Source of the DNA: Candidatus Edwardsbacteria bacterium
GTDB taxonomy: Bacteria > Edwardsbacteria > AC1 > JBFLXN01
DNA length: 12,346 nucleotides
NCBI GenBank assembly: GCA_040755715.1
Contig: JBFLXN010000014.1
Coordinates: 1 to 12,346 of the forward strand
Reading direction: 5' to 3'
The first letter of the stretch is position 1, and each line of letters starts with the position of its first letter. A program made the translations under genes and the position numbers. Positions 598 to 12,346 of the stretch are shown here, piece by piece. The notes under the pieces are model-generated. The model saw only the letters and a program-made list of their open reading frames with translations, had not been told where the DNA came from and ran no database searches.

Positions 598-1502
598 CAG
601 CGTTTAACCTCTGGGATCTGTTTTTCGCTTCCTAACTTCTGCAATCTGACCTCCAATATATTATTATGGTATCTTCTCACAATTCCTTCGCTGTCAACTT
701 TTGCTGGAAGAGAAACCTCTTCATAGTAGTTAGATTCGGGAGTTTTACAAGAGACGGTAAGTCTATCTTCATCTACCCCTAATAATATATCCTCTTCCTG
801 GGCACCTTTTAATTCCATAATGATGTTTAGATGGTCGCCTTCATCAAAGATATCCAATAACAATTCCTCTTTATCTTTTTTTAATTTATCCCCTCCGATA
901 ATCCACCAGCTAAACATAACTTTCTTTCCTGTGGATTCATCAATCTTACATCTTTGGAATACTAAAACCGGAAAACCTATCAGCTCTTGAGCCGTTGGAT
1001 TAATAATATTTCTTACCCTGTGGAGAATATCCATATGATTTGGCGCATTATAGCTGTGAGCCAATTCGTCAATGGTGGCATGTCTATTTTGCCAGACAAA
1101 AAGAAGTATATTTTGGCTCTCAGGATCTAACTCTTTGGCAATCTTATCTATTCCCTCTTGATTTATTTCCAATAGGCTTCTTTCAAATATCTTATTTTTC
1201 CACATCTCTACATCTTTTACCATAATCCAGGCCTTTGAAGCAGTTGCACCGCCTTGATTTCTATAAGAGATACAAAGGGCGTCCTTACTTCTTAATGTAA
1301 AACCCCTCTGTTGAATGCTGATTCCTTTTATATTTTCTAAGGACGTCTGGAATATAATCCTCGCCGGCTGCCAAAGAAAAAGCCTCAGGTTAGTCAGGTA
1401 CAGATGCCCTGGTTTCCAGCCGCTGCGTAGATTATCTTTGTAAAAACCCGGATCGCTTAGTATAACCTCTTCATTCGCTTTTAATTCAGGCTTATTTTTC
1501 AT
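597..1502 (-). CDS. PH/GRAM-like domain plus possible winged-helix module plus C-terminal alpha-crystallin (Hsp20) domain fusion protein
   Basis: The track ORF is 597-1598, and the codon at 1598 is TTG. The N-terminal motif GWKPGHLYLTNLRLFLWQ resembles bacterial PH/GRAM (G-x-LY-x-T-x-x-RL). The C-terminus, LLLDIFDEGDHLNIIMELKGAQEEDILLGVDEDRLTVS...VRRYHNNILEVRLQK, reads as an alpha-crystallin domain. The start is uncertain. ATG 1502 gives an 11-nt overlap with the upstream ORF. ATG 1565 is preceded by GGAAAG. TTG 1598 is the longest option. Confidence 0.8.
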   Translation of the reverse strand: MKNKPELKANEEVILSDPGFYKDNLRSGWKPGHLYLTNLRLFLWQPARIIFQTSLENIKGISIQQRGFTLRSKDALCISYRNQGGATASKAWIMVKDVEMWKNKIFERSLLEINQEGIDKIAKELDPESQNILLFVWQNRHATIDELAHSYNAPNHMDILHRVRNIINPTAQELIGFPVLVFQRCKIDESTGKKVMFSWWIIGGDKLKKDKEELLLDIFDEGDHLNIIMELKGAQEEDILLGVDEDRLTVSCKTPESNYYEEVSLPAKVDSEGIVRRYHNNILEVRLQKLGSEKQIPEVKR

Positions 1503-1767
1503 CTTTTCTGTAGTGTTTATAAGTAAAACCTGGATGTCTTGCACCACCGGGTTTGTTATCTTCATATTCTTTCCGTTTATATTTTGACCTTTTATCAAAT
1601 TCTACCCCTGTAGAATGTATTATCTGGGCATCTTCACCAGTTGAGTATTTAACCGAATATCTTCTTCTCTTTTTTGCCCACTCATCCCAGTCCATAGCTG
1701 TGGAGTGTCTCACCTTTGTGCCGCGGCCAGTAGAATACCCTGAAGTTTTAGGTGTCTTGGATTTCAT
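1492..1767 (-). CDS. small basic protein with four [HY]-S-T-[GA] repeats (hypothetical)
   Basis: ATG at 1767, preceded by AAGGGATAA (SD-like). The ORF fills what would otherwise be a ~180-nt gap in a compact operon. The motif occurs four times as GYSTG, HSTA, KYSTG and HSTG. Its codons differ mostly at wobble positions (CAT/TAC/CAC/TAT; TCT/TCA/TCC/TCT; ACA/ACT/ACA/ACT; GGG/GGT/GCT/GGC), which argues for selection at the protein level. Confidence 0.55.
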   Translation of the reverse strand: MKSKTPKTSGYSTGRGTKVRHSTAMDWDEWAKKRRRYSVKYSTGEDAQIIHSTGVEFDKRSKYKRKEYEDNKPGGARHPGFTYKHYRKDEK

Positions 1768-1782
1768 TTATCCCTTTTTTTC

Positions 1783-2355
1783 CTATTTCCATTTCCAATT
1801 ACAGGTCTTCCAATCATCAGGCACAGAAGGATGGTCTAAAATTCCTGTTTTCCCGCCTGCGTTATCAGTCTCCTTGACTACGTCCTCCTCGTCGACTTTG
1901 GGACTTTGCGGGGCAGGGGACGGAGCTTCCTCACATGGTTCATCTTGAGAGGAATCGAGGGCTTCAGCTGCTTCTTCCTCTTCTACGACCTCTTCGAAGA
2001 CTATCCCGCATTTCGGACAAACTGTTGTGTTTTCTTTTACGGCTGTGCCACAGCTCACACATTCATATCCTTCTATCTCTTCTACTTCTTTTTTGGTCTC
2101 TTCAGTGCCCATACTACCTCCAAGTTCTTTCTCGCCCTCGCCTTCGCCCTTAACCTGTTCTTCTCCCAAGGAAGTAATCCTGTATAAAGCAAACCTACCG
2201 GGCGAAAGCCTTTCTATATACCCTTTCTCCCACAATTTTTTGCATATATCATAGGCATAATTTATTGTAACCCTTAAGTTCCCGGCAATAGTTACGGTAT
2301 TTCCCTGTTTAATTTCCTTAAATTTTTCTAAAATCTTTTTCTCGTTAGGGGTCGT
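1783..2355 (-). CDS. winged-helix DNA-binding domain plus acidic linker plus zinc ribbon protein (putative regulator); non-canonical or damaged start
   Basis: The track ORF 1783-2235 begins at an internal TTG. The frame stays open upstream to the TAA at 2361-2359. That upstream part encodes the rest of a complete wHTH: TPNEKKILEKFKEIKQGNTVTIAGNLRVTINYAYDICKKLWEKGYIERLSPGRFALYRITSLGEE. A perfect SD, AAGGAGGT, lies at 2368-2361, with ACG 6 nt downstream at 2355-2353. There is no ATG, GTG or TTG between 2358 and 2236. The zinc ribbon is CVSCG-x11-CPKCG. Confidence 0.6.
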   Translation of the reverse strand, partial: TTPNEKKILEKFKEIKQGNTVTIAGNLRVTINYAYDICKKLWEKGYIERLSPGRFALYRITSLGEEQVKGEGEGEKELGGSMGTEETKKEVEEIEGYECVSCGTAVKENTTVCPKCGIVFEEVVEEEEAAEALDSSQDEPCEEAPSPAPQSPKVDEEDVVKETDNAGGKTGILDHPSVPDDWKTCNWKWK

Positions 2356-2405
2356 CTTTTACCTCCTTATGTTCTTGGTTATTATTCTATCCTTATGCCA
2401 ACATT

Positions 2406-2858
2406 TCAATATTCGATAGATACAGATTTCCACTTCTTTTCGGCTCTACTCCCTTTGCCTTGGCGCCCTACTTTTTCTTGAAGAGTAGTCAATCTATTGG
2501 GTCCACGATTACGAATTACCAACCACGACCCACGAGTAGGTCCAGATAATTTAATCTCGGCTCGAGAGTGAGGTCCGAGTTTTGTCTCCTCTAACACATC
2601 ACCTTCTAAGGTAAGCCTTCCATTTTCATCTATCCTGCCTTGACTTTCCATCATAGTAACTTCGAACTGTGAAAGGCGCGGGACCATGCTTTGCAGATGA
2701 TAAACAATCAAATATGGCCACCGCATGCTTCCTTTAATCCTTACTACTTTAATTCCCACTGGGCTTGCGAGATTTAATCCCGCTTCCCTTCGAATATTCG
2801 AAGGAATAGATAATCTACCCTCTTCATCAATTTCGCTAAATCCTTTTAACAGCGGCAT
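2406..2858 (-). CDS. tandem AbrB/SpoVT/MraZ-like (swapped-hairpin) domain protein, putative DNA-binding
   Basis: There are two copies of the D-x-x-GR-L/I signature. The first is [21 protein letters not shown] and the second is [21 protein letters not shown]. The ATG at 2858 overlaps the Hsp70 gene end by 23 nt. Confidence 0.7.
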
Positions 2859-4602
2859 CTTTTGTTTCTATCTTTAGATTTCTCTTTATCCGTTTAAACG
2901 CATTATAGACAATCTCAACCAGCTTTCTTAATTCATCAATTTTTACCCTGGTCTCTTTATATTCACCCTTGGATAAAGTTGTCTTTATTGCCAGGATTAG
3001 TTTCTCTATTTTTTCTACATCTGACCTATCTATTAGACCCTCTCCTTCTTCCAGAACCATCTCTGCTGCTTGTATCATACTTTCCGCTCGAATGCCCATT
3101 TGAATCTCTTCTTTTCGCTTTTGGTCTTCCTTGGCATGAATTCGGGCATCTTCTATCATCTCGTTAATCTGGTCCTTGGTCAGCCGGGAAGAAGAACTGA
3201 TCTGGATACTTTTTTCATTATCGGTATGTAAATCCAAGGCTCTGACTTGTAAAATCCCATTGGCATCTATATGGAATGTCACCTCAATCTGAGCTTCACC
3301 CCTTCGACCGGGTGGAATATCAGTAAGCTCAAACTTACCCAGACTTATATTATCGAAGCTCAGGAATCTCTCTCCCTGCAAGACATGGATATCGACCTGA
3401 GTCTGGTTATCTTTAGCTGTCGTAAATATCTGACTGCTGGATGTAGGAATGGTGGTATTTCTTTCTATGATCTTAGCAAATATCCCTCCCTCAGTCTCAA
3501 TTCCTAAAGAAAGGGGAGTAACGTCTAACAATACCACATCTTTTATTTCCCCAATCAAGATATTGGCTTGAATTGCTGCGCCAAGAGCCACTACCTCATC
3601 CGGATTTATATCCTTATAAGGTTCTTTGCCCAGAAGCTCTCGAGCGAGCTTTTGCACAGCAGGCATTCTGGTGGAGCCTCCTACCAAAACTACCCTGTCT
3701 ATCTGGCCGGGGTTGAGCTTTGCATCAGAAAGGACCTGTTTAGTAGGCTCTATCATCTTCTCTAATAAATCCCTGGTTAGCTCTTCAAACTGCTCTCTAC
3801 TCATAGTCAGATGCAGATCCATATCTTGTATGAGAAATGGGATTCTGATATCTGCAAACCTTTTTGTGGAAAGTTCTTTTTTTGCCTTCTCTGAAGCCTC
3901 TTTCAACCGCTGTAAAGCCACCCTATTTCTTCTTACATCCACTCCATGCAACTTCTGAAAATTATCAGCCAAATAATCCATTATCCTCTGGTCCCAATCA
4001 TCTCCGCCAAGATGTGTATTTCCCCCTACTGCCTTCACCTCAAACACGCCATTGCCCAACTCTAAAATAGATACATCGAAAGTGCCTCCACCCAAATCCC
4101 ATATTAGAATATAGTGTATATCCTGCTTGTGTAAGCCGTAGGCCAGGGAAGCAGCAGTAGGTTCATTTATAATCCGCATTACCTCTAATCCGGCTAAGGC
4201 GCCTGCCTCCATAGTCGCCTGGCGCTGGTTATCATTAAAATATGCAGGAACTGTAATTACTGCTTTCTCTATTTTCTCGCCCAAATAATCTTGCGCATCT
4301 TCCTTGACCTTACGAAGGATTAAGGCCGAAATCTCTTGGGGGGTAAATTTTCTCTCGTCAATCTCTACCCCATAATCAGTGCCCATCCGACGTTTAATAG
4401 ATGCAATGGTACGTTCTGGATTTGCAACTGCCTGGGTTCTGGCAAGATTGCCTATCAGCTGCCTCCCTCCATCGGCAAAGGCAACCACTGAAGGAGTAAG
4501 CCTTCCGCCTTCAGCATTGGGTATAATCTCAGGCCTCCCATTGTTTATAAAGGCGGCTACTGAAAAGGTAGTGCCTAAATCTATTCCTATTACCTTACTC
4601 AT
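2836..4602 (-). CDS. dnaK: Hsp70/DnaK-family chaperone paralog (588 aa)
   Basis: Hsp70 motifs present: [56 protein letters not shown] substrate-binding domain ([13 protein letters not shown]) and a helical lid are also present. The true start is the ATG at 4602-4600 ([12 protein letters not shown]), in an ATGA overlap with the upstream stop. The 34-aa extension in the track lies inside the upstream gene. Confidence 0.93.
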
Positions 4603-5672
4603 TTGGCTACCTGGGCTATTTTCTTCTTTAACCGTGGGCTGACCCAGCCGCAGTTTACGCAACCCTTTTCTAATAGCTCTAAGGCGTTTGCCTTTTTTCC
4701 GCATTGAGGGCAGGCTTCTGTTCTTTCTCTAAATGATATGATTCGGGTAAGCGCCCTCTCCCACTCATACATTCCCTCTCCTGAAAAAGAGGCAACCTTT
4801 CTTTGAGAACCACCTTCACCCAGCCCTTGCGCGCAAGAGCTGGGTTCATATATTACGTCAAAGACCTTTTTCTTCTTTAATACCGGGCTCAAATTCCTTA
4901 CATCTATAGCAGAACCTAATATCTTTTCTGAAGGGACTTCAAAAGCCAATCTCTTTTCAAAATCATACCACCAGCATAATCTCTTATTTGTTATATACAG
5001 ATGACCGGGCTTCCAGATACCATCTGATGAGGCCATATGCCAGGCCTTGCCCTTGTGAGTAATCGTTTCTCCTTCTGTCAGGAAATCTAATGTCTCTTCC
5101 TCATATTCGGGTAGAATAAGGTTTTCATCAATTATAAGTCCGCCTAACTTTATCGCCTCTTTTATAGACTCACCTAATTTATCTATCTCCACAGACCGCA
5201 GACGCGCTAATCTATCATCCTTAAGAATAAGTAAGAGCGTATCTTCTTGTATCAAGAGCCCCTTTATCTCATCTAAAGAGGTTTGAAACATCACTTCATT
5301 AAGCTCTTGATTCATGAGCAGCAGTCTTTTATCAGTTAAATAAATCTGCCCCGGTCTCCAACTAACATAGATTCCTTTGGCATAAAAAAAAGAGCCCAAC
5401 ATCTTAAGTTTAAGCTCTTCTCCCTGGATTAAAGAAATCTCTTTTTTAGCTCTATTATCTTTTTCCCAGGCGCGAATCTTCTCATCCCATGCCTTCATCA
5501 TGCCATACTCGAGCATAGTCTCCATGCCGGCCAGGGCGGCTCTTAAATTAACACCGATTAAAGGGATGCCCGCCACAGAGATGATAATGTCAGCGTTGAT
5601 CACCAACCCCTTATCCAGGACCCTATCCAATAAATCAACCAATGTGACCCGTGCATCTCTGGTTGGCTCCAT
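4599..5672 (-). CDS. GvpA/J/M-family (GvpM-like) N-terminal domain fused to two PH/GRAM-like domains and a C-terminal zinc ribbon
   Basis: The N-terminus [49 protein letters not shown] matches the gas-vesicle structural core (LxxVxDRxLDKGxV...). Two PH-like motifs follow, [15 protein letters not shown] and [16 protein letters not shown]. The C-terminus is [25 protein letters not shown]. The ATG at 5672 is preceded by AAGGAG. Confidence 0.85.
4815..4848. repeat. second copy of the 26-bp palindrome (one mismatch), flanked by direct ttca, inside the GvpM-like fusion CDS
   Basis: cccagcccttgcgcgcaagagctggg lies at 4819-4844, with ttca at 4815-4818 and 4845-4848. Element plus one flank is 30 nt, or 10 codons, so it is in frame. 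It encodes [10 protein letters not shown]. Confidence 0.7.
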
Positions 5673-5691
5673 ATGTCGCTTCGCTCCTTTA

Positions 5692-5733
5692 TCAGAATTC
5701 AGAAGTCAGATTTTTCTATCCTCTGTCCTCTGT
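5692..5733. promoter_or_regulatory. two sets of tandem heptamers in the 85-nt gap upstream of the GvpM-like fusion gene
   Basis: TCAGA occurs at 5692, 5699 and 5706, with a 7-bp period. cctctgt occurs twice in tandem at 5720-5733. Confidence 0.25.
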
Positions 5734-5757
5734 TACCTGTTTTTCTATGCTTTGGCT

Positions 5758-6522
5758 TTAGGCGAATGAGTATGGTGGCCAGGGGCCTGTAAATCGAACG
5801 ATCAACCCATTTTCTTTTTTAATCTTTTCTAAAACTTCGCCAAGCCTTTTGACATTTTCCTTAGCAACCAAACAGGATAAGTTCATGATCATCTGTAAGT
5901 TCTCATCTACTTTTTTAGCCTTATCTATATGAATATCAAAAACTTCTTTCTTTATCCGAGCATAAAAGTCCTTAAAATATTCATCGGCCTTTTTTCCCAT
6001 CTCTTTCCTTAATAGATTCTTTATCTTCTCTTCATACATATAGGCTGTGCCCGGTGGTTTAGACTTCAACTCCTCTTTCAAATTCTTAATCTCTGGGCTA
6101 TCTTCGGCTATTCTTTCAACCATAACCTTGGGATCCCATAAAATCTGGACTCCATATTCTTCTTTGCCCTTGACTTTATTTAATCTTTCTTTTAGATTCT
6201 GGTAATCTTTTTGCAGCCACTTTTTCATATTTTCTTTCGGGTCTATGCCTTCTTCGCCAATAATTATGGTATCAAATGCCAGAGGCAGGACAGTACCAAA
6301 CCTCTGCCAGGCATAATCCACTACCTTCTGGTGAGTCATTACCCAACCTTTTACAATATCTTTATCTTCTGATTCGTAGGGGTGAGGTTCACAGTTGTGA
6401 ACAACGGCTGAAATTTCCTGGTATGGAAGAGTGTAAACGTTGCTCCCATCAATTCCAATCTCACCCAGGCTTACCTTTTCGTTGCCATCAGCTATGCAGT
6501 AGAGATATATACCGTCGTTCAC
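5758..6522 (-). CDS. gvpF: gas vesicle protein GvpF/GvpL family
   Basis: N-terminus GIYLYCIADG, then VLPLAFDT, then C-terminal FTGPWPPYSFA, which together are typical of GvpF/L. The preferred start is the GTG at 6522-6520. It forms a GTGA overlap with the gvpK stop and is preceded by AAGGAGA with an 8-nt spacer. The track's ATG at 6549 lacks an SD and overlaps gvpK by 31 nt. Confidence 0.88.
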   Translation of the reverse strand: MNDGIYLYCIADGNEKVSLGEIGIDGSNVYTLPYQEISAVVHNCEPHPYESEDKDIVKGWVMTHQKVVDYAWQRFGTVLPLAFDTIIIGEEGIDPKENMKKWLQKDYQNLKERLNKVKGKEEYGVQILWDPKVMVERIAEDSPEIKNLKEELKSKPPGTAYMYEEKIKNLLRKEMGKKADEYFKDFYARIKKEVFDIHIDKAKKVDENLQMIMNLSCLVAKENVKRLGEVLEKIKKENGLIVRFTGPWPPYSFA

Positions 6523-6836
6523 TTGGCTGTCTCCTTTATTTTTTCCCATCTCGTGGGATTAGCTATTTTATCTATAACATCGTTGACTATATTATCTAAA
6601 CCATCTCTCACTGATTGAACTGCCTCACCAACCCCTTGTTCCTCTTTTATATGCTCTATTGCGACGTCGAGTTCCTTAAGCGCTCTACCCAGACGTTCTA
6701 TCTCTTCTTCGTTTAGGCTTCCACCCTCCATTCGCTTTACCGCCTGAAGTTTAAGGGCATCTCTGATTATTTCAACCAAGGCAAGCACAAGGCCTAAAAC
6801 ACCGCTTTTAAGATTATCTTCATTGATATCTATCAT
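6519..6836 (-). CDS. gvpK: gas vesicle protein GvpK
   Basis: GLVLALVEIIRDALKLQAVKRMEGGSLNEEEIERLGRAL matches the GvpK core as I remember it. The ATG forms an ATGA overlap with the upstream stop. Confidence 0.88.
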   Translation of the reverse strand: MIDINEDNLKSGVLGLVLALVEIIRDALKLQAVKRMEGGSLNEEEIERLGRALKELDVAIEHIKEEQGVGEAVQSVRDGLDNIVNDVIDKIANPTRWEKIKETAK

Positions 6837-7420
6837 TTTTCTATTTTTACTTCTAAAATCCCATTCTTGTATGTTTTTTCTAGTTTTCCTTTAGATTCGC
6901 AGGGTAGTTTTAATTGCTGATGGTACTTGCGATCAGGAATATCTACTGATATTGCAAGGCTGTCTTTGACTAAATCAATTTTTATATCCTTTTCTTCAAT
7001 GCCTGGTATTTCAGCAATCACTTTAATATGATCTTCCTCATCAAAGATATCCGCTGGCCGCTCTTGAGGTGTTGGAGGGGGTGAGGGTTTTACTTCTGGT
7101 CTCTGTTTAGCAAAAGGTTTTCCTCTAAAGGCCCTTCCTCTTATGCCCGGAGGGATGCCGCCGGGGATACCCGAAGGCCTTCCTTCAGCTCTTTTCAAAG
7201 GGGCTTCTTTTATCTTACGCTCCACCTCTTTATCAACCTCCTTAAGCCTCTCTTTGAAAGCCGGGGATTTCTCCAGGCCTTTAATTAATCCCCCTAATCC
7301 GGGAATTACCTTGCCCAGACCTTTAAGTATTCCTCCTGCTACACTTTCAGATTCTTTTTCTCCCGCCTCGGGCGGGACATCCTCTGGTCGCTTTTTGTCT
7401 TTATCTTCTTTACCGGTCAT
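6833..7420 (-). CDS. Hsp20/alpha-crystallin domain protein with a long Gly/Pro-rich N-terminal region
   Basis: The C-terminus reads as an alpha-crystallin domain: DIFDEEDHIKVIAEIPGIEEKDIKIDLVKDSLAISVD...LEKTYKNGILEVKIEK. The N-terminal region carries G-rich repeats (GGILKGLGKVIPGLGGLIKGLEK, GIPGGIPPGIRG). The ATG at 7420 is preceded by AAAGGTG. Confidence 0.85.
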   Translation of the reverse strand: MTGKEDKDKKRPEDVPPEAGEKESESVAGGILKGLGKVIPGLGGLIKGLEKSPAFKERLKEVDKEVERKIKEAPLKRAEGRPSGIPGGIPPGIRGRAFRGKPFAKQRPEVKPSPPPTPQERPADIFDEEDHIKVIAEIPGIEEKDIKIDLVKDSLAISVDIPDRKYHQQLKLPCESKGKLEKTYKNGILEVKIEK

Positions 7421-7468
7421 ATTCTACACCTTTCTTTAGCTTTACTTGTTAAGCTGCTAGCTTATTTC

Positions 7469-7819
7469 TCATTCTGCCTTTATATCTTTTGCCTTGGCGC
7501 TTACCCAGCCACACCAGGGACAGCCCTCATCAAGTAATTCTTCTGCCAGAACTTTTTTGCCGCACTGTGGACAAAGTTCTTTACCCTTCATGGCTTCTTT
7601 CCAGGCTTCTGTTTCCACATTAGTCCCTGATGGAAACTCAAGGCCATACTTTGCTGCTGTCTCAAAAGAAGCCAGGGCTGCCCTTATCTTAATTCCCAAA
7701 AGCTCTACTCCGGCAACAGATATGGCGATATCCGCATTAATCACCAGGCCTTTGTCTAAAACCCGGTCTATGACATCAACCAAAGTAACACTTGCATCTT
7801 TTGTCGCTTCTATTGCCAT
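7469..7819 (-). CDS. gvpJ: gas vesicle structural protein, GvpA/J/M family (GvpJ-like), with a C-terminal zinc ribbon
   Basis: [53 protein letters not shown] is the gas-vesicle core, and it looks J-like from memory of the haloarchaeal GvpJ sequence. The C-terminus is CPQCGKKVLAEELLDEGCPWCGWVS. The ATG at 7819 is preceded by AAGGAGG with an 8-nt spacer. Confidence 0.88.
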   Translation of the reverse strand: MAIEATKDASVTLVDVIDRVLDKGLVINADIAISVAGVELLGIKIRAALASFETAAKYGLEFPSGTNVETEAWKEAMKGKELCPQCGKKVLAEELLDEGCPWCGWVSAKAKDIKAE

Positions 7820-7832
7820 TTCTATTGCCTCC

Positions 7833-8225
7833 TTACCCCGCTACTACACCTTGGCCTTTACATTTGGGGCAAGCCACTGGATGAGGTTTGCGCGGATATA
7901 CCCCACTTCCATTGCAAGTGGTGCATTTTTTAGAAGGTGTCATCCTTGTAACCACCCCTACCCCACCACAGGCTAAACAGTGTATGCGACTTGTAGTATA
8001 TGGGTCTATTCCCTTGCCACCACAAAAATTGCATTTCATTGTCGGGCCAATAATTCTCACCTTACCTTTTCCTAAACACACCTGGCAATCAGAAAGCTTA
8101 GATAAAAGCTGAAAAGGATCTTTTCCTATTCCATTACAAAAGGCGCATATAACTTCCACTTTATTTTTTTCTATTCGCCTAAGCTCCTCAGGTGCAATCG
8201 TAGCCCATTTTGGTTTTTTAGCCAT
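7833..8225 (-). CDS. DnaJ-type cysteine-rich zinc-finger protein with six CxxCxGxG repeats and no J domain
   Basis: Six repeats: CAFCNGIG, CQVCLGKG, CNFCGGKG, CLACGGVG, CTTCNGSG, CPKCKGQG. No HPD motif is present. The ATG at 8225 is preceded by GAGGAGGTG. Confidence 0.85.
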   Translation of the reverse strand: MAKKPKWATIAPEELRRIEKNKVEVICAFCNGIGKDPFQLLSKLSDCQVCLGKGKVRIIGPTMKCNFCGGKGIDPYTTSRIHCLACGGVGVVTRMTPSKKCTTCNGSGVYPRKPHPVACPKCKGQGVVAG

Positions 8226-8262
8226 CTTTCACCTCCTCACCTTCGGCTGGTCGGGGTTAGCA

Positions 8263-8320
8263 GTTATTAGTTATAAGTTATGTATTTTTAACTGATAACT
8301 TATAACCCGTAATCCATAAC
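8263..8320. promoter_or_regulatory. inverted arrays of GTTAT/ATAAC half-sites with 7-bp phasing (operator-like); includes a 12-bp perfect inverted repeat and a candidate promoter
   Basis: gttat occurs at 8263, 8270 and 8277; ataac occurs at 8295, 8302 and 8316. The perfect inverted repeat is gttataagttat (8270-8281) paired with ataacttataac (8295-8306), with a 13-nt loop. On the minus strand, TTATCA (8298-8293), a 17-nt spacer and TATAAC (8275-8270) resemble -35 and -10 boxes. The site lies in the 100-nt gap upstream of the zinc-finger gene. Confidence 0.35.
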
Positions 8321-8325
8321 TTTTT

Positions 8326-8901
8326 TTACCTTCTCTTCTTCTTGGGTTTCCCTTTGGTCTCTTTAGTCTTCTCCTTTATCTCTTCTTTTTCCTCCAAATC
8401 TTTTATGCGCTTCTTAAGTTCTGCCTCTTTTGTCTTAAAATCATCCCCAGTTATTTCAGCTCTCTCAAAACGCATTTTAAGCTCGAGGATTTCTTCTTCT
8501 AAGGCGACCTTAGGGTCTTTTTCTTCTTCAGCCTGCGCTCCCACTGCGGCAGTGATTCCTTTGACCATCTCTACTGGTTGATATGGCGCTGAAATTAGCT
8601 TACCCAAGAATCTAAATAACCCTATATCCTTTGGCCGTTCCAACTTGCGCCTTCTAATGGCTGGTACATTAGATATTCCCCATTTCTTAGTTGGCATCAT
8701 ACCCCAATATTTGGGAATAGTAATATTGGGTTTAGCGCTTACTAGGGGAATAGGTTTAGAAACCAAGGGAATCTCTTTACTAACCAGCGGAATAGCGCTT
8801 GCTACTTGGGGCATAGCCTTACTAACCGATGGTAAGCTACCCGCAGTAAAAGGAATGAATTTGGCTTCTTTCTTGTTAGATTTTTTCTTTTTGGGAGACA
8901 T
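8326..8901 (-). CDS. GvpG-like protein with an N-terminal [ILM]P-x-V-[SA]-K heptad-repeat extension and a Lys-rich tail
   Basis: The C-terminal half, LFRFLGKLISAPYQPVEMVKGITAAVGAQAEEE...LEEEILELKMRFERAEITGDDFKTKEAELKKRIKDLEE, parallels the canonical GvpG at 11444-11728. Compare LELKMRFERAEI here with LELQMRFEMGEV there. The N-terminal repeats are LPSVSKA, MPQVASA, IPLVSKE, IPLVSKP and IPLVSAKP. Confidence 0.78.
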   Translation of the reverse strand: MSPKKKKSNKKEAKFIPFTAGSLPSVSKAMPQVASAIPLVSKEIPLVSKPIPLVSAKPNITIPKYWGMMPTKKWGISNVPAIRRRKLERPKDIGLFRFLGKLISAPYQPVEMVKGITAAVGAQAEEEKDPKVALEEEILELKMRFERAEITGDDFKTKEAELKKRIKDLEEKEEIKEKTKETKGKPKKKRR

Positions 8902-8930
8902 CTTCCCTCCGCTCTTTTTTATATTTATAT

Positions 8931-10895
8931 TTATCCATATATTTCCTTAGAAAAATCCTTTAATCGGTCAATACCTTTGATCTGATAAGGGAAAAGCGGC
9001 AGCTGACCAATTTGATATTGCGAAGACCTTTCCCTCTCTATTTCCTGGATAATCTTAATCTGCTCACCTCTTTTTGACTCGCAAAAATTACATCTAGTTT
9101 TCGGAAGAATCATATTAACCAGAATATAATGAGAGGGGATGTTAAGTCGCTTAAGGTTCTCAAGGAGGCCGTCCATCTCACTCTTGCCCATAGCCTCTGG
9201 AATACCTACAACCACAAATTGACACCTCGCCGGATCTGTGAGAATCTCCTGTATTTTTCTCACCTTCTTAGAAAACTCTATCATCTCTTCAGCCTGTTTG
9301 GCCAATCGTACTATCCCCTTATATTTTATAAGTAATTTAAATATTGCATTTAGCCACTCCCTGGCAACCTGAGGCATCTCTAGAAACCGCAATAGGTGTC
9401 CTGTAGCTGCTGAATCTAAGATATATATATCAAATTTTCCTCCATCTATAAATTCCACCACCTTAGCTAAAGCCATAATCTCATCCAAACCGGGAGGAGT
9501 AAGTGAGATAAGTTCCTCTAAAATCTCCCTATCGAACTTAACATCCACTCCACCTCCGATAAATTTACTAAATACCTCGCTTATTTGGTCTTTATAATCC
9601 TTTTTAAAATTCTCAAGCAACTTCAAAGCATCTATCTCCAGGGCAAATAGATTATTGGGGACAGTCTCCTTCGGGGACAGTCCCCCTATCTGAGTGAGAT
9701 TATCTCCAATAGATAGACCAAAACTATCGGATAGCGAATGGGCAGGGTCGGTAGAAAAGACTAAGACTTTTTTAGAGGGGTATTTTTTGGCCATACTAAG
9801 TGCAGTGGCTGAAGCTATGGATGTTTTACCCACCCCACCTTTTCCCCCAAATATATATAATATAATGCCTTTCTCTATTAATTGAGGCAATTTAATAATA
9901 GAGAAAATCTTAGACTTGAAATCAAAAGGTTTCTTTCCAATGGGAAGGCGATGTGGCTTCTCTTCAAATAAAACCTGGGCATATTCCTTTAGTCGATCCA
10001 TCCCTCTGATTTGATATGGAAATATCGGTATCTGATGAAGTTCGAGATTTGCGAATTTTTGCCTGATTATATCTAATTCTTTCTTTTGTTCTTTCTCTTC
10101 CTTAGAACAAAAGGGACACCTGTTTTGACTACTTTTAATTTGATTGACGATAATAGATTTCACTGAAATTCCATATCCTTTTAATATCGCCAACAACCTT
10201 TCTGTCTCTTCTATAGCCAAGGTCTCGGGTTTAGTGACAGGTATAAATTCTGTTGAATCGCGGTTCTTTAGTAACCGACTTACTCTATCCACGTCGCTTT
10301 TCACCATCTCTAAAAATTCATCAGCGTCGTCTTTTTTGTATTTGCCAGCAAAATGGCTGGCTAAAAATCTATGCTTAGATTGCATCAAATCTAAAACTTC
10401 GACCCACTTTTTCATCTGAAGGGGTAAACCTAAAAGCCTTATGGTATGTCCTGTAGGTGCGGTGTCCAAGATGATTAAATCGTATTTCTCTTCTCTTAAG
10501 ATATTAGCTATTTTTATAACCGCCATTATCTCATCTAACCCTGGAATAGAAAGGGAAAAGAAATTCTCTATATCTTGCCTGTCGAAATAAGTTCCTCTCT
10601 CAACGATCTTTTTCATCACCAAATCATATTTCTTTTTAAAAAGAGAGGCCTCTTCCTCAGCTTTTATTTCTAAAGCCCAAAGATTGTTTAAATCTTTTAT
10701 GGGTGTAATGGTATTACCAACAGTATAGCCCAAACTATCACCCACTGAATGAGCAGGGTCACAGGATACAATCAAAATCCTCTGCTTGGGATAATGTTGG
10801 GCTAAATAAAGGCCAGTAGCAGTCGCTGATGTAGTTTTTCCGCAACCCCCCTTTCCACCAAAGATTATTAGACGCCGCTTCTCGCTGATTTTCAT
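8931..10895 (-). CDS. tandem-fused ArsA/Get3 (TRC40)-family ATPase (654 aa, two homologous halves)
   Basis: Half 1 has GGKGGCGKTT, CDPAHSVGDSLG, DTAPTGHTIRLLGLP and a CPFC motif. Half 2 has GGKGGVGKTS, TDPAHSLSDSFG, DSAATGHLLRFLEMP and a CNFC motif. Each half ends in a matching tail: IPIFPYQIRGMDRLKEY in half 1 and LPLFPYQIKGIDRLKDF in half 2. ATG at 10895. Confidence 0.92.
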   Translation of the reverse strand: MKISEKRRLIIFGGKGGCGKTTSATATGLYLAQHYPKQRILIVSCDPAHSVGDSLGYTVGNTITPIKDLNNLWALEIKAEEEASLFKKKYDLVMKKIVERGTYFDRQDIENFFSLSIPGLDEIMAVIKIANILREEKYDLIILDTAPTGHTIRLLGLPLQMKKWVEVLDLMQSKHRFLASHFAGKYKKDDADEFLEMVKSDVDRVSRLLKNRDSTEFIPVTKPETLAIEETERLLAILKGYGISVKSIIVNQIKSSQNRCPFCSKEEKEQKKELDIIRQKFANLELHQIPIFPYQIRGMDRLKEYAQVLFEEKPHRLPIGKKPFDFKSKIFSIIKLPQLIEKGIILYIFGGKGGVGKTSIASATALSMAKKYPSKKVLVFSTDPAHSLSDSFGLSIGDNLTQIGGLSPKETVPNNLFALEIDALKLLENFKKDYKDQISEVFSKFIGGGVDVKFDREILEELISLTPPGLDEIMALAKVVEFIDGGKFDIYILDSAATGHLLRFLEMPQVAREWLNAIFKLLIKYKGIVRLAKQAEEMIEFSKKVRKIQEILTDPARCQFVVVGIPEAMGKSEMDGLLENLKRLNIPSHYILVNMILPKTRCNFCESKRGEQIKIIQEIERERSSQYQIGQLPLFPYQIKGIDRLKDFSKEIYG

Positions 10896-10949
10896 CTGCG
10901 TTCATCTGATTTCCGGTGATATCTACGTTTATCTACGTTATTCTACTTC
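10891..10949. repeat. 10-bp-phased direct repeats spanning the gvpO end and the ATPase start
   Basis: ttcatctg occurs at 10891 and 10901. atctacgtt occurs at 10921 and 10931, with a degenerate ttctacttc at 10941. The first pair duplicates the ATG context (CAGATGAA twice on the minus strand). Confidence 0.4.
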
Positions 10950-11207
10950 AACTGTCTCGGTATCCGCCCTCTTTCTTAACCTTGTCCGATTAAATTCCAT
11001 TACATTGCCATCGTCATCCAAAATTACCTCATAGGTGGCTAAGATATCCATCTGGTCAGGAATGGAGTGCTTTTCTATCATCTCCATAGTAACCTTCCAG
11101 CCTTTTTCATCCTTAGCCGCCCCTAAAGTAGTAGAAAGTTCCAGTCCTGTAAACCTACTCAATTCCTCACGAGCCTTCTCAATAATCTGTTGCATTGTCT
11201 TCGCCAT
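10938..11207 (-). CDS. gvpO: gas vesicle protein GvpO
   Basis: The pattern AREELSRFTGLELSTTLGAAKDEKGWKVTMEMIEKHSIPDQMDILATYEVILDDDGNVMEFNRTRLRKR matches my recollection of the GvpO family (...G-W-x-V-x-x-E-x-x-E...P...D-x-LA-x-YEV-x-LD..G.......R). The ATG is preceded by AAGGAGGT with a 7-nt spacer. Confidence 0.82.
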   Translation of the reverse strand: MAKTMQQIIEKAREELSRFTGLELSTTLGAAKDEKGWKVTMEMIEKHSIPDQMDILATYEVILDDDGNVMEFNRTRLRKRADTETVEVE

Positions 11208-11232
11208 CTTTTATACCTCCTTTTTTAAAAAG

Positions 11233-11439
11233 TTATAGTTTCCTTTTAATCTTAGCCCCACAGGAAGGGCAGAATGCATAACCATAAATATACCGCCACC
11301 TTGCCCCACATTCCTGACATTCGATATTTAAGGGTTCTCCGCATTCTGAACAAAACCGCAGATTCCCCCAGGTTACACTTCCGCATCGAGGGCACCTAAA
11401 TGCACCTTTTGGTAGTGCTGGTTCTATTCTTTCTTCCAC
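11233..11439 (-). CDS. double zinc-ribbon protein (68 aa)
   Basis: Four CxxC pairs: CPRCG, CSECG, CQECG, CPSCG. The GTG start at 11439 is preceded by GGAGGTG with a 5-nt spacer. Confidence 0.72.
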   Translation of the reverse strand: MEERIEPALPKGAFRCPRCGSVTWGNLRFCSECGEPLNIECQECGARWRYIYGYAFCPSCGAKIKRKL

Positions 11440-11443
11440 ATTC

Positions 11444-11728
11444 TCACCTCCTCTCCTCTTTGTATTTCCTGATTGCCTCTAATCTTTCCAGGATTTTTCC
11501 TTCTTTCTTTTTATATTCCTCTTCGTTCACCTCGCCCATCTCAAAGCGCATCTGAAGTTCTAGCAACTCTTCCTGCACTTTAGACTCATCGGTCACCTCA
11601 GTCTCGGCTGTCTCCTTTAGTTTATTTCCGATCCATACCACCCCCTTTATAGGCAACAAAAAAGGCAATAAAATATCGGTTAATCCAAAACCCGATCCTT
11701 TAGAACCACTCTCAGGCTTTTCCTTCAC
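11444..11728 (-). CDS. gvpG: gas vesicle protein GvpG
   Basis: LTDILLPFLLPIKGVVWIGNKLKETAETEVTDESKVQEELLELQMRFEMGEVNEEEYKKKEGKILERLEAIRK fits the GvpG pattern. The present start is the GTG at 11728-11726, in a GTGA overlap created by the inserted element. See the findings for details. Confidence 0.85.
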   Translation of the reverse strand: MKEKPESGSKGSGFGLTDILLPFLLPIKGVVWIGNKLKETAETEVTDESKVQEELLELQMRFEMGEVNEEEYKKKEGKILERLEAIRKYKEERR

Positions 11729-12020
11729 CCCGCCCTTCCTTTCCTTGCAATGCCAAGTCTAGATTTTAATCTTGCCAAACCACTTCCGAACTTCTTCAAG
11801 CTTTTTTCCCTTTCAAATGCCACATCTTTAGATCTATAGGCCTCAAAATATATTAACTCCACTGGTAACATCTTTCTAGTTGAATATATCTTTCCTTGCT
11901 TATGCTCCATTAACCTTTTTTTCAAGTTATTCGTACATCCTATATAAATCCAGTCTTTAACTTTACTACTGAGTAAATATATATAATGCCAATTAGGCTT
12001 TTTAGGAAGGGCGGGGTTCA
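11724..12020 (-). mobile_element. putative miniature autonomous element: TTCA | 12-bp TIR | GIY-YIG ORF | 12-bp TIR | TTCA
   Basis: The plus strand has ccccgcccttcc at 11728-11739 and its perfect reverse complement ggaagggcgggg at 12005-12016. Direct ttca copies flank these at 11724-11727 and 12017-12020. The ORF start (xTG) and stop (TGA) both fall within the flanking TGAA copies. Confidence 0.5.
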
Positions 12021-12021
12021 C
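11725..12021 (-). CDS. small GIY-YIG nuclease family protein (98 aa)
   Basis: WHYIYLLSSKVKDWIYIGCTNNLKKRLMEHKQG...ELIYFEAY...AFEREKSLKK carries the GIY/YIG motifs, the conserved Arg, the Glu and the RE-x-x-x-K signature. Start is the GTG at 12021 and stop is the TGA at 11727-11725. The ORF is bounded by 12-bp inverted repeats. Confidence 0.85.
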   Translation of the reverse strand: MNPALPKKPNWHYIYLLSSKVKDWIYIGCTNNLKKRLMEHKQGKIYSTRKMLPVELIYFEAYRSKDVAFEREKSLKKFGSGLARLKSRLGIARKGRAG

Positions 12022-12176
12022 CCTGCCCTTCCTTTTCTCGCAATGCCAAGCCTATATTCAATTTGGCTAAACTGTTTTTGCATTTCTTTAAAATCTTTGC
12101 CCTGCCCTTAAGCTTAAAATGTGGGATTTACCCAGCCCTTGCGCGCAAGGGCTGGGTTTAGGAAGGGCGGGGTTCA
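12017..12176 (-). mobile_element. degenerate, internally deleted tandem copy of the GIY-YIG element
   Basis: The TIRs are ccctgcccttcc at 12021-12032 (one mismatch) and ggaagggcgggg at 12161-12172, with flanking ttca at 12017-12020 and 12173-12176. The copy keeps the first 7 codons (ATG AAC CCC GCC CTT CCT AAA = MNPALPK). It also keeps the last 11 codons plus stop (RLGIARKGRAG*), which differ from the intact copy only synonymously. Its interior is disrupted by stops and a 26-bp palindrome. Confidence 0.45.
12127..12160. repeat. 26-bp perfect palindrome cccagcccttgcgcgcaagggctggg flanked by direct ttta
   Basis: The palindrome spans 12131-12156 and is exactly self-complementary. Direct ttta copies sit at 12127-12130 and 12157-12160. 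It is GC-rich in an AT-rich context. Confidence 0.7.
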
Positions 12177-12346
12177 TAACTTTCTCCTTCAAGTACAATT
12201 ACTAATTCTACAAAGTTACATGGAGGTACAGGTCCAACGTATTTGAACTTTATCCTTCCATCATAAATTGTGCTTAGTCTATCTACTAATCTATCAAATT
12301 CTTCCACCCGGGGCTTTTCTACCAAGAAAGCTAAGTTTGTTATCAT
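12158..12346 (-). CDS. gas vesicle protein GvpF/GvpL family, C-terminal 62 codons (gene starts beyond the right edge)
   Basis: LAFLVEKPRVEEFDRLVDRL...IKFKYVGPVPPCNF parallels the FTGPWPPYSF end of the other GvpF/L gene. The last codons (YEPRPS) and the stop lie inside inserted repeat sequence. Confidence 0.82.
   Translation of the reverse strand: MITNLAFLVEKPRVEEFDRLVDRLSTIYDGRIKFKYVGPVPPCNFVELVIVLEGESYEPRPS

Follow-up and report, generated by a model that had tools for sequence, protein, structure and literature searches.

Positions 11728-12176 of the window hold a recent insertion of two copies of a mobile element, one intact and one internally deleted. The window is the whole stretch of DNA analysed, positions 1-12,346 of contig JBFLXN010000014.1 from Candidatus Edwardsbacteria bacterium, and the element is read on its minus strand. 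The favoured reading, to which a probability of about 0.7 is given, is that of a ~0.29-kb mobile element composed of a single-domain GIY-YIG gene between 12-14-bp inverted repeats and moved via its own structure-selective nuclease; we infer that this nuclease is the agent of the mobility. The element belongs to a large, apparently undescribed family present in several uncultured bacterial phyla.

Layout of the insertion

The start codon of gvpG carries a 449-bp composite (11728-12176) made of an intact 289-bp unit and a 152-bp internally deleted unit. Both units display the ends CCCCGCCCTTCC/GGAAGGGCGGGG and a direct TGAA outside them. The features are as follows:

12158-12346, minus strand: 3' end of gvpF/L (Pfam PF06386)
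12173-12177, minus strand: left ATGAA, the original gvpG start codon, unchanged in the empty sites of contigs L007-L009
12021-12172, minus strand: deleted, non-autonomous copy, 152 bp, delineated by alignment with the full copy and shorter derivatives
12161-12172, minus strand: left arm of the deleted copy, CCCCGCCCTTCC, read from the sequence
12131-12156, minus strand: nested 26-bp perfect palindrome CCCAGCCCTTGCGCGCAAGGGCTGGG in the deleted copy, with TAAA at 12157-12160 and 12127-12130
12021-12032, minus strand: right arm of the deleted copy, GGAAGGGCAGGG, with one mismatch to the left arm
12017-12020, minus strand: middle TGAA, common to the deleted and intact units; G12021 plus TG forms the GTG start of the nuclease
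11725-12021, minus strand: intact nuclease ORF, 98 aa (ORF list; Pfam PF01541, E = 3.7e-14)
11728-12016, minus strand: core of the intact element, 289 bp, bounded by the terminal inverted repeats
12005-12016, minus strand: left terminal inverted repeat of the intact unit, CCCCGCCCTTCC
11728-11739, minus strand: right terminal inverted repeat of the intact unit, GGAAGGGCGGGG
11724-11727, minus strand: right TGAA; its TGA is the nuclease stop, and G11728 plus TG forms the present gvpG GTG
11444-11728, minus strand: gvpG (Pfam PF05120, E = 6.8e-24), its ATG taken over by the element
4815-4848, minus strand: second mini-element, a 26-bp palindrome (4819-4844) with TGAA on each side

The inverted ends with direct 4-bp TGAA flanks given in a preliminary description of this DNA are confirmed, and the arms of the intact unit extend to 14 nt, with 100% complementarity, if the adjoining A and T are included. 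A terminal 14-bp stem is predicted in the ssDNA fold. Searched with up to two mismatches, the arm motif has 7 occurrences in the window where 1.09 would be expected; none of 200 shuffles attained 7. The same ends as in the intact unit are also found in L001, L002, L012-L015, L018, and L021.

The terminal repeats are the ORF's own first and last codons (NPALP...GRAG). The start and stop codons of the nuclease both lie outside the 289-bp core because they are situated in the flanking TGAA copies: the 98-codon ORF opens at GTG 12019-12021 and closes at TGA 11725-11727, as had been proposed. The element itself thus contains neither codon and takes its start from the xTG of the left target and its stop from the TGA of the right target.

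Of the element sequence, the deleted copy retains ~20 nt at the 5' end and ~55 nt at the 3' end. The left ATGAA, with the host Shine-Dalgarno sequence GAAGGAG immediately upstream, is now the start of a 29-codon remnant ORF. The codons for the RLGIARKGRAG* terminus of this copy differ from the intact ones at four positions, all synonymous, in line with the earlier statement that only synonymous differences separate them.

Both host genes have been modified at their junction. The last residues of GvpF/L, now ...ESYEPRPS* and formerly ...ESYEGKA*, are altered because the reading frame continues into the element; the former ending had been reconstructed from the sequence and is matched by the empty-site comparison. 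The present start of gvpG (94 aa) is GTG 11726-11728, preceded by the purine-rich element end AAGGAAAGGAAGGG, so that the suggestion of an SD-like run plus a GTG supplied by the right end of the element holds. A 95% identical GvpG orthologue (P0121) starts with ATG in an empty site. Exact-sequence look-ups of the nuclease and of GvpG returned no record, and that of GvpO returned a sole match, the same-strain contig L006, which ends at the element boundary.

Empty sites and target duplication

The empty site predicted in silico by removal of the insert is real. The sequence ...AGTTATGAAGGAAAGG... is found in three contigs that carry an orthologous gvp cluster with 93-95% nucleotide identity; in these (L007, L008, and L009) the junction reads ...GAAGGAGAAAGTTATGAAGGAAAGGCCTGAGAG, with a single TGAA, and the empty-site sequence at gvpF/L-gvpG is AGTTATGAAGGAAA. 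Filled and empty junctions differ by one TGAA, the BLAST segments overlapping by 4 nt in the subject. The 449-bp composite and the 30-bp mini-element thereby each have orthologous empty sites, in contigs of the same 93-95% identity. In the gene maps of L007-L011, gvpF/L overlaps gvpG directly in every case and the insert is missing; vertical conservation of the nuclease gene at this position is therefore not what is observed. All sequences compared are metagenome assemblies, in which neither excision footprints nor circular intermediates were seen.

Identical 4-nt flanks are found at 45 distinct elements: 28 TGAA/TTCA, 9 TAAA/TTTA, 5 TGAG, 2 TTAA, and 1 TGCA. They indicate that the target duplicated on insertion is four nucleotides long and has the form T-N-N-A, here TGAA. 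One and the same core occurs with differing flank pairs, and the flanks are therefore the duplicated target and lie outside the element. That the tetranucleotide belongs to the element, as in IS608, is rejected, since the 26-bp core has co-varying TGAA, TAAA, TTAA, TGCA, and TTTA flank pairs. A 2-bp duplication with a fixed outer A/T is disfavoured because the outer bases of the TGAG|TCCC...GGGA|TGAG subgroup would be non-complementary. Several copies of the Patescibacteria type have non-identical flanks (e.g. L063, L039, and L196).

The GIY-YIG nuclease

The nuclease is a single-domain protein in the ~90-100 aa size range, whose Pfam matches are limited to GIY-YIG and the overlapping, related T5orf172. 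A set of 158 homologues, 52-88% identical, keeps the MNPALP...GRAG termini, and residues Y13, Y15, Y26, R36, H40, and E72 are among those that are invariant. The AlphaFold model has a GIY-YIG fold, with UPF0213, Slx1, and HIGLE as the closest solved folds. The peptide tails encoded by the element ends are poorly modelled, with a pLDDT of 58 (residues 1-10) and 45 (91-98) versus 86-91 for residues 11-70. The dN/dS values of 0.04-0.19 denote strong purifying selection, and, judged from these conserved residues and from the model, the nuclease looks functional. Across the copies, interior synonymous sites are saturated (pS 0.45-0.9) and the terminal nucleotides are near-invariant, with a single substitution, in L014. 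This pattern, with the poorly modelled tails, indicates that the element ends act at the DNA level.

Family distribution and start-codon pattern

Further copies with the same ends and flanks, which the preliminary description had proposed to look for, occur in unrelated operons. Across NCBI, ENA, JGI, and Logan assemblies, at least 14 distinct host genes have an intact element beside them, the host operons including mrp/mnh, LMW phosphatase-rpiB, and argD-argF. Of 15 intact Omnitrophota-clade copies checked, which sit in different operons, 13 share one arrangement: ATGA provides the stop of the upstream gene with its TGA and the start of the nuclease ORF with its xTG, this ORF closes at the TGA of the second TGAA, and a long host ORF restarts at a G/A-TG that combines the final repeat base with TG. 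The borrowing and replacement of a host start described for gvpG is thus recurrent. The restarting ORFs of these copies are 164-695 aa long where complete (94 aa for gvpG in the window). Of all the TGAA sites that these loci contain, only ~5.7% are plausible gene starts; the enrichment at start codons, however, may reflect survivorship and the intact-ORF search method rather than target choice.

Relatives at a greater distance, in Patescibacteria, Planctomycetota, and one Nanoarchaeota bin, possess their own terminal repeats. Each protein subgroup has its repeat (CCCCGCCCTTCC, TCCCGCCCTTCC, ACCCCCACAC..., ATCCCCACACCTAAT..., GCCCCTCAC...), perfect and 13-22 nt long, so that, in the sequences compared, protein subgroup and ends vary together. 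Among the Patescibacteria relatives, some serve as an in-frame fused leader of type IV pilin-like proteins.

A search of the literature on prokaryotic GIY-YIG elements with terminal repeats and target duplications surfaced only the paper on the Ssn family, GIY-YIG site-specific ssDNA nucleases with NTS/SRM hairpin repeats (Chenal et al., Nat Commun 2025, PMC11893778), and a text-term search of the 2006 GIY-YIG survey returned no mention of such elements. The best-surviving alternative to a mobile element is a domesticated Ssn-type host system, in which nuclease and dispersed hairpins would have a cellular role, for instance in restricting incoming or exposed ssDNA as in Neisseria. The gene would simply lie among its recognition sites, and its copies would have been spread by recombination or horizontal transfer. 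Ssn proteins are of similar size, are flanked by cognate hairpins, and act on transforming ssDNA, according to that paper (PMC11893778). The purifying selection on the nuclease would suit such a system, as would the behaviour of one exact protein (P0028), which lies at the argD-argF junction on all nine contigs that carry it and is stable at this locus in several samples. The precise presence or absence, with a 4-nt duplication, at two sites of one cluster argues for mobility instead, as do an identical junction geometry next to at least 14 unrelated host genes and the existence of deletion-derivative series and tandem arrays. Moreover, the SRM motif is unmatched and the C-terminal motif of three SRM-flanked proxy homologues is missing (see below). 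Domestication is therefore considered improbable as the explanation of these copies, although host function and mobility are compatible with each other. Recent multi-site transposition of one identical protein was also considered and is rejected, P0028 having a single context on its nine contigs.

Short derivatives and 26-bp palindromes

Short derivatives that retain the ends measure 152 bp (window), 124, 49, and 35 bp (the latter three from L002, L021, and L012). The 35-152-bp intermediates keep remnants of the ORF, and the short forms therefore derive from the long one. All four, as well as the 26-bp palindrome, behave as non-autonomous copies.

The arms of the 26-bp palindromes differ from the element ends at two positions. 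The intact copy reads CCTAAA where the deleted copy holds the nested palindrome, for which an ssDNA hairpin of -14.6 kcal/mol (z = -6.6) is predicted. The palindrome at 4819-4844 (predicted hairpin of -11.2 kcal/mol, z = -4.7) is in frame within ORF 4599-5672, which encodes a 357-aa GvpA-family protein. It constitutes a 30-bp insertion (26 bp plus the 4-nt duplication) that adds 10 residues to this protein; it is present in L006 and missing from the 347-aa orthologues in L007 and L009. Both 26-bp palindromes, like the Ssn precedent, are additions to the preliminary description. The palindrome was found in 96 JGI metagenome stretches, and two copies lie within the 12 kb window. At distinct low-GC metagenome sites of the 26-bp form, the flanks are identical in 16 of 36 cases versus 0.14 expected.

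In a second alternative, the GIY-YIG gene is a passenger, having homed into the centre of one such palindrome or riding in its loop, and the palindromes are moved by an unlinked enzyme, such as a REP-associated tyrosine (HUH) transposase, or by host recombination. These palindromes outnumber the intact genes, which would favour it. A similar core in other repeat classes and in high-GC contigs, outside the survey of GIY-YIG genes, would agree with a passenger, as would the fact that GIY-YIG enzymes have no known joining activity. Yet the terminal repeat changes together with the protein subgroup across phyla, more than 100 homologues translate the repeats as ORF termini, and the intermediates retain parts of the ORF; a HUH or RAYT gene was looked for in the window and none was found. 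A passenger gene is thus judged still less probable than a domesticated host system.

A classical free-standing homing endonuclease gene, which would cut a cognate allele lacking the intron or gene and be copied into it by homologous recombination, is very improbable: GIY-YIG is a classic homing fold and the protein has a weak, sub-threshold match to the group I intron endonuclease model TIGR01453 (21 bits versus a cut-off of 56), but it has only 98 aa with no DNA-binding or other extra domain in Pfam, its mutually unrelated insertion sites share only TNNA without flanking homology, terminal repeats and a target duplication are present, and the DNA-binding module, intron or phage residence, and homologous allele of the I-TevI/Seg type were not found. 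A group I intron or RNA element is likewise rejected, the Rfam search giving nothing at threshold, as is a phage-borne homing gene, IMG/VR viral contigs giving just five weak partial matches.

Proposed mechanism and implications

Movement of the element by its own nuclease could proceed as follows. The two ends would pair into a stem in single-stranded or extruded DNA, leaving TNNA unpaired at its foot. The nuclease, structure-selective in the manner of Slx1, UPF0213, or Ssn, would recognise the stem and cut at this foot, and would also cut TNNA targets; host repair or ligation would complete excision and insertion. In the inserted state, the host gene downstream takes its new GTG from the last G of the repeat and the TG of the right target copy, with a Shine-Dalgarno-like purine run ahead of it. 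Intact copies would persist mainly at translated start codons, because only there would the promoterless, start-less ORF be expressed and the host operon stay functional. To our knowledge, no GIY-YIG enzyme performs strand transfer or joining, and the element is therefore not fully autonomous in the way of a DDE or HUH transposon.

Whether the family amounts to a previously unrecognised class of prokaryotic DNA transposon, whose sole protein is an 84-98-aa GIY-YIG structure-selective nuclease, is a more tentative proposal, given somewhat less than an even chance. If true, ~0.29 kb would be the smallest self-encoding mobile DNA known to us, in a family spanning Omnitrophota, Planctomycetota, Patescibacteria, and one DPANN archaeal bin. 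A nuclease domain on its own, with less than 100 residues, and two 12-nt ends would suffice for a mobile element, and a GIY-YIG-based class would join the known transposon enzymes. The target duplication would provide the nuclease with both its start and its stop codon and the host gene with a new start, and the element would therefore be tolerated inside operons without polar damage; such use of a 4-nt duplication as a supplier of codons is an unusually economical parasitism in compact operons. Through its 30-bp in-frame copies, the family contributes inserted peptides to the proteins of streamlined uncultured bacteria. The subgroups, each pairing a tiny nuclease with a defined stem, are of interest for single-stranded DNA tools. 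A plausible selfish ancestry would also emerge for the recently discovered Ssn nucleases, as Ssn/NTS systems might descend from such elements by domestication.

Comparison with known systems

The Ssn nuclease/hairpin-repeat family is the closest known system. As in the element, a single-domain GIY-YIG protein of ~94-98 aa is encoded by a gene bracketed by G+C-rich inverted repeats, which are also dispersed as hairpin copies in the Ssn case and probably for the element, and the repeat is directional, the stem being preceded on its 5' side by a short conserved sequence. In the accessible text of the Ssn paper, these nucleases (94-97 aa) bind the hairpin and cut ssDNA beside it, the authors note that the repeat-gene-repeat layout resembles an insertion sequence, and NTS repeats are said to be rare inside genes (PMC11893778). 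The Ssn genes described there have complete hairpins (CGTCAT-stem-loop-stem-ATCCAG) outside the ORF on each flank, whereas in the element one stem is split between the two ends, both of them within the ORF. A target duplication, empty sites, start-codon insertion, and in-gene copies are unreported in that same text (PMC11893778).

Ssn membership is defined there by the cd10448 clade and a blastp match to N. meningitidis SsnA (CAX49033.1) with E < 1e-10 and at least 75% coverage (PMC11893778). Three SRM-flanked homologues from alphaproteobacterial plasmids (L092-L094) were used as proxies for SsnA. The nuclease is 31-37% identical to them over residues 13-79 only (~68% coverage), and their C-terminal W.R.WK..LIE..NP.W.DL is replaced by FGSGLA.LK.RLGI..KGRAG. 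The family profile scores 55-64 bits on these three homologues and 36-51 bits on UPF0213 cores. The SRM regular expression HGTCWYN(0-2)YYVSBRHN(0-5)WNVSBRGN(0-2)RNCYNB gives 4, 4, and 1 hits in the surroundings of the L092, L093, and L094 genes, respectively, only one unrelated hit in L002, and none in the window; Ssn membership by motif is rejected on this last count.

Among solved structures, UPF0213 (1zg2, E = 4e-5) and Slx1 (TM-score ~0.6) match best in sequence and fold. UPF0213 (YhbQ/BH0048) resembles the nuclease in its single-domain size. Unlike the element, however, UPF0213 and Slx1 are host repair proteins or proteins of unknown function, and neither is known to us to be associated with terminal repeats, target duplications, or insertion at multiple loci.

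IS200/IS605 elements and REP/RAYT systems are small like the element, involve the recognition of hairpin-forming DNA and insertion beside a specific tetranucleotide, and have short palindromic derivatives dispersed through the genome. Their enzyme is a HUH/Y1 transposase acting through a covalent intermediate, whereas that of the element is a GIY-YIG hydrolase. IS200/IS605 elements, at least ~0.6-0.7 kb long, have subterminal hairpins without terminal inverted repeats or target duplication, in contrast to the terminal repeats and 4-nt duplication found here. Rickettsia palindromic elements (RPEs) are short palindromes of ~100-150 bp located in frame within protein-coding genes, where the added peptide is tolerated; a linked enzyme gene is undescribed. 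The likeness to them is one of description: the in-gene form of the element measures 26+4 bp and has a relative with similar ends that carries a gene.

The sole ORF of the element encodes a GIY-YIG nuclease, and no recognised transposase class (DDE, HUH/Y1, serine or tyrosine recombinase) is encoded according to Pfam. PiggyBac, a TTAA-specific cut-and-paste transposon, has a DDE transposase of more than 500 aa, is eukaryotic, and bears no sequence relationship to the element. PiggyBac and MITEs nevertheless share with it terminal inverted repeats, a 4-nt T..A duplication, internally deleted non-autonomous derivatives, and a difference between filled and empty sites of exactly one target copy. 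The traits of insertion sequences and MITEs observed for the element are thus terminal inverted repeats, a target duplication, empty sites, and non-autonomous derivatives.

Anatomy of the insertion

The start codon of gvpG is occupied by a composite of 449 bp (11728-12176, minus strand), in which an internally deleted unit precedes an intact one. Read on the minus strand, its left half runs GAAGGAGAAAGTT ATGAA, CCCCGCCCTTCC, the 152-bp unit, GGAAGGGCAGGG and TGAA; after this middle TGAA, the right half follows as CCCCGCCCTTCC, the 289-bp unit, GGAAGGGCGGGG, TGAA and GGAAAAGCC.

Features of the insertion and of the surrounding gas-vesicle cluster
2836-4704: Hsp70-like protein (HSP70 Pfam match on the orthologue in L006, a separate assembly)
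4599-5672: GvpA-family fusion protein of 357 aa hosting a 30-bp insert (Gas_vesicle domain, weak GRAM match, same C-terminal CxxC pairs as the GvpA at 7469-7819)
4819-4844: second copy of the 26-bp palindrome, TGAA on each side
7469-7819: GvpA with two C-terminal CxxC pairs
7833-8225: cysteine-rich protein with repeated CxxCxG motifs
8931-10895: tandem ArsA-type ATPase, 654 aa
11444-11728, minus: gvpG ORF (GvpG by Pfam)
11725-12021, minus: GIY-YIG ORF, 98 aa (Pfam E = 3.7e-14)
11727-11740 and 12004-12017: 14-nt inverted arms, 100% complementary (repeat finder)
12131-12156: perfect 26-bp palindrome CCCAGCCCTTGCGCGCAAGGGCTGGG nested in the deleted unit, TAAA on each side
12158-12346, minus: C-terminus of a GvpF/L protein (Pfam)

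The nuclease ORF takes both its start and its stop codon from the duplicated target: its GTG combines the last G of the upstream unit with the TG of the middle TGAA, and its stop is the TGA within the right TGAA. The present gvpG start is likewise a GTG, made of the element's last G and the TG of the right TGAA. The arm motif, allowing two mismatches, occurs seven times in the window against 1.09 expected, a count reached by none of 200 shuffles. The palindrome at 4819-4844, whose arms resemble the element ends (CCCnGCCCTTnC), makes up with one TGAA an in-frame insert of 30 bp. The preliminary description, drawn from the sequence alone, had set out the composite, and every element of it was found again (layout, arms, ORFs, starts and stops), including the claim that the deleted copy differs only synonymously (four differences in the RLGIARKGRAG* codons, all synonymous); both 26-bp palindromes had escaped it.

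The gas-vesicle cluster itself (2836-10895) is of unusual make-up and includes two GvpG paralogues. The CxxC pairs of the GvpA at 7469-7819 suggest a zinc ribbon.

Empty sites

Contigs reached via GvpG homologues, L007 (GCA_049324155.1), L008 and L009 (both Logan), share the gvp cluster with the window at 93-95% nucleotide identity. In all three, gvpF/L directly overlaps gvpG at the junction GAAGGAGAAAGTTATGAAGGAAAGGCCTGAGAG, which equals the window minus 11728-12176, bar one A/G polymorphism. The empty site reconstructed in silico beforehand thus exists in nature, along with the GvpF/L ending predicted from it (...ESYEGKA*). At the mini-element site, L007 and L009 read ATATA TGAA GGTGG, and their GvpA-family orthologue has 347 aa, lacking exactly the 10 inserted residues. 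BLAST segments flanking the insert overlap in relatives by 4 nt (TGAA) at the composite and mini-element sites alike. Given these empty sites, both insertions are real and precise, and younger than ~5-7% nucleotide divergence. By gene map, gvpF/L also overlaps gvpG in a more distant cluster (L010, L011; GvpG 82% identical).

L007-L009 show upstream additions to the cluster: Hsp20, a CDC48-like AAA ATPase and a GvpF-DnaJ fusion. L006 stems from an independent Logan assembly of this strain, matches window 938-11727 (10.8 kb) at 100% identity and ends exactly at the right TGAA bordering the element (L006 position 1 = window 11727). Coexistence in the sample of filled with empty alleles, or of several copies of the element, would be expected to produce such a break.

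Related elements and start-codon placement

The search detected 158 nuclease homologues at 52-88% identity, most of them 95-98 aa long; where a source is named, the label is mainly Candidatus Omnitrophota. Most of the 28 inspected start with MNPALP or something close to it (MSPALP, VNPALP) and finish with GRAG or a similar ending, these protein termini being the terminal repeats in translation. In all, 341 relatives came from context look-ups together with a scan of 185,579 species-representative genomes, and 80 loci were retrieved. The anatomy is constant in the Omnitrophota clade (xTGAA, then CCCCGCCCTTCC ... GGAAGGGCGGGG, then TGAA), one subgroup having TGAG then TCCCGCCCTTCC. The further copies sought after the preliminary description lie at unrelated host genes with the same ends and flanks; neighbours include an mrp/mnh antiporter operon (L001), LMW phosphatase-rpiB (L002), argD-argF (L191) and a PlsX-like gene (L022).

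Every copy examined is oriented like the host gene downstream of it. Of 15 intact Omnitrophota-clade copies examined, 13 have a long host ORF starting at a G/A-TG whose first base is the final base of the repeat (complete ORFs have 164-695 aa, gvpG in the window 94 aa), and in most of these 13 the upstream host ORF stops at the TGA of ATGA. The host gene receives from the element end a purine-rich run and a GTG (or ATG). Plausible gene starts account for 62 of 1,087 TGAA sites counted in ten of these loci; the corresponding binomial P of 6e-15 is inflated by survivorship and by the protein-based search.

Shorter derivatives and target duplication

Derivatives keeping the ends measure 152 bp (window), 124 bp (L002), 49 bp (L021), 35 bp (L012) and 26 bp. 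A tandem of a short unit then a full unit recurs in the window, L012 and L021, and L016 has two full copies in tandem. In L002, two further pieces lie less than 7 kb from the intact copy at rpiB, which indicates several insertion events in one short stretch: a 124-bp deleted copy (12081-12204; GTGAA ... TGAA) that occupies the start codon of a deaminase gene, and, around 16590, an orphan right end. Peptide inserts of ~10 aa (NPALARKGW, PAPARRSWIY) are found inside the GIY-YIG ORFs of relatives (P0107, P0076), two of them in L027 (10001-10351), and arrays of partial and full copies occur at L025 2580-3062 and L016 841-1392; these observations suggest that the elements target one another.

JGI metagenomes contain 96 stretches with the palindrome pattern. 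Among contigs of less than 48% G+C, 16 of 36 distinct 26-bp sites have identical 4-nt flanks (TGAA, TAAA, TTAA, TGCA, TTTA), against 0.14 expected. Many copies lie in frame within long ORFs (up to 694 codons), encoding, by frame and strand, TQPLRARAG or an alternative of 18 letters not shown here. All loci combined, 45 distinct elements have identical 4-nt flanks. Since one and the same core is found with several flank pairs that co-vary, the flanks are duplicated target and not element sequence. Insertion takes place at TNNA with a 4-nt duplication, and end-only derivatives occur at independent sites, each with its own target duplication.

Two other repeats were observed. The first has a similar hairpin core (CCCnGCCCTT...) within longer, partly palindromic flanks (GAACTTA-hairpin-TTAATTCG) at L001 3203-3253, L015 16523-16568 and 17101-17146, and in L099, L103, L108, L123, L128, L130, L146, L168 and L175, usually away from long ORFs, and could represent a further non-autonomous family or else a repeat that is terminator-like. 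In high-GC soil/peat contigs (JGI, 55-60% G+C; L097, L113, L117, L125, L131, L139, L145, L170, L188-L190), the same 26-bp core pattern sits inside a larger palindrome, CAGGGTTG-core-CTACCCTG, which is a different repeat family from unrelated organisms.

Distant relatives and pilin fusions

Distant relatives (43-55% identity, 84-86 aa, without NPALP/GRAG tails) originate from Patescibacteria, Planctomycetota, Ca. Scalindua, Elusimicrobia and one Nanoarchaeota bin. They are bounded by their own perfect terminal inverted repeats of 13-22 nt (e.g., ATCCCCACACCTAATCAGTTT, ACCCCCACACCAAACATGTTT, GCCCCTCACTCAGAACCTTT); repeat sequence and protein subgroup thus change in concert. Element length is 285-310 bp. 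In many cases the direct flanks are identical (TGAA, TAAA, TTTA, TTGA, TGAG, or the 5-nt CAGTA or CCGTA); in several they are non-identical. With a repeat whose final base is A, a host ATG is recreated at the right junction, as in L033 and in the L082/L089 genes starting MKELAKNKRAYFDYQ. Other copies lie on the upstream gene's stop codon or are intergenic.

In many distant relatives (210-514 aa; P0223, P0229, P0230, P0235, P0291, P0307, P0331), the GIY-YIG domain is fused N-terminally to type IV pilin-like proteins (Pfam N_methyl). The nuclease part in L196 (2510-2810; Logan SRR29366200_1011764) is bounded by a perfect 16-nt repeat, ACCCCGCACCACTTTT, and the reading frame continues across the right repeat as ...KSGAG, then FTLIEL. 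This junction matches the prepilin processing motif G|FTLxE, in which case the nuclease would serve as a pilin leader. Ssn nucleases, GIY-YIG enzymes acting on ssDNA, affect natural transformation, a process that relies on pili of this type.

Constraint, structure, and proposed mechanism

In the interior of the ORF, dN/dS is 0.04-0.19 and synonymous sites are close to saturation. The element ends are conserved at the DNA level, the terminal 12-17 nt being essentially invariant in nucleotides (one substitution, L014). The AlphaFold model displays a confident GIY-YIG core (pLDDT 86-91 across residues 11-70) and low pLDDT in the repeat-encoded parts (58 for residues 1-10, 45 for residues 91-98). 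Invariant residues include Y13, Y15, Y26, R36, H40 and E72, and the nearest solved structures are UPF0213 BH0048, Slx1, HIGLE, the UvrC N-terminal domain and I-TevI. As ssDNA, the mini-elements are predicted to form 12-bp hairpins (z = -4.7 and -6.6), and the full unit to be closed by a 14-bp terminal stem with TGAA unpaired on either side.

We know of no joining activity for GIY-YIG enzymes, and the retrieved protein P0028 was found in one context only, both of which are weak points of the proposed mechanism; joining would be done by host functions. By analogy with Ssn nucleases and Slx1-type enzymes, the nuclease would recognise the stem of the paired ends in single-stranded or extruded DNA and cut at its foot. 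Ssn nucleases bind a hairpin and cut the adjacent ssDNA (PMC11893778). Intact copies would survive mainly on start codons, since only there would the start-less, promoter-less ORF be translated and the operon left intact.

Comparison with known systems

A classical homing endonuclease is rejected, as there is no DNA-binding domain and no intron (Rfam), the insertion sites are unrelated, and viral contigs are nearly devoid of copies. An IS200/IS605 or RAYT element is likewise rejected, given the lack of any HUH protein in the window, the terminal position of the repeats and the target duplication. Literature searches turned up no earlier account of elements of this kind.

The closest system described is the Ssn family, ~94-aa single-domain nucleases whose genes are flanked by NTS/SRM hairpins, a layout that its authors liken to an insertion sequence (PMC11893778). 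Three plasmid-borne Ssn-type homologues were recovered, each flanked by CGTCATCCCCGCGAAGGCGGGGATCCAG-like SRM copies. Against these, only the catalytic core of the window protein aligns (residues 13-79, 31-37% identity), the C-terminal motif W.R.WK..LIE..NP.W.DL derived from the three is absent, and the SRM motif has no match anywhere in the window; the present elements are therefore treated as a clade probably related to, and distinct from, Ssn. On the family profile, Ssn-type proteins score 55-64 bits and UPF0213 cores 36-51 bits. Unlike in Ssn, the half-stems lie inside the ORF. Four properties seen here were not found among the features reported for Ssn: target duplication, empty sites, placement on start codons and copies within genes.

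The finding is real: empty sites and many independent copies support the original reading of a mobile GIY-YIG element on the gvpG start. The anatomy of the elements is surprising and directly testable. They are classed with the known pairing of a GIY-YIG nuclease and cognate inverted-repeat DNA, and there is a substantial chance that these very small mobile elements form a class of their own that has so far gone unrecognised.
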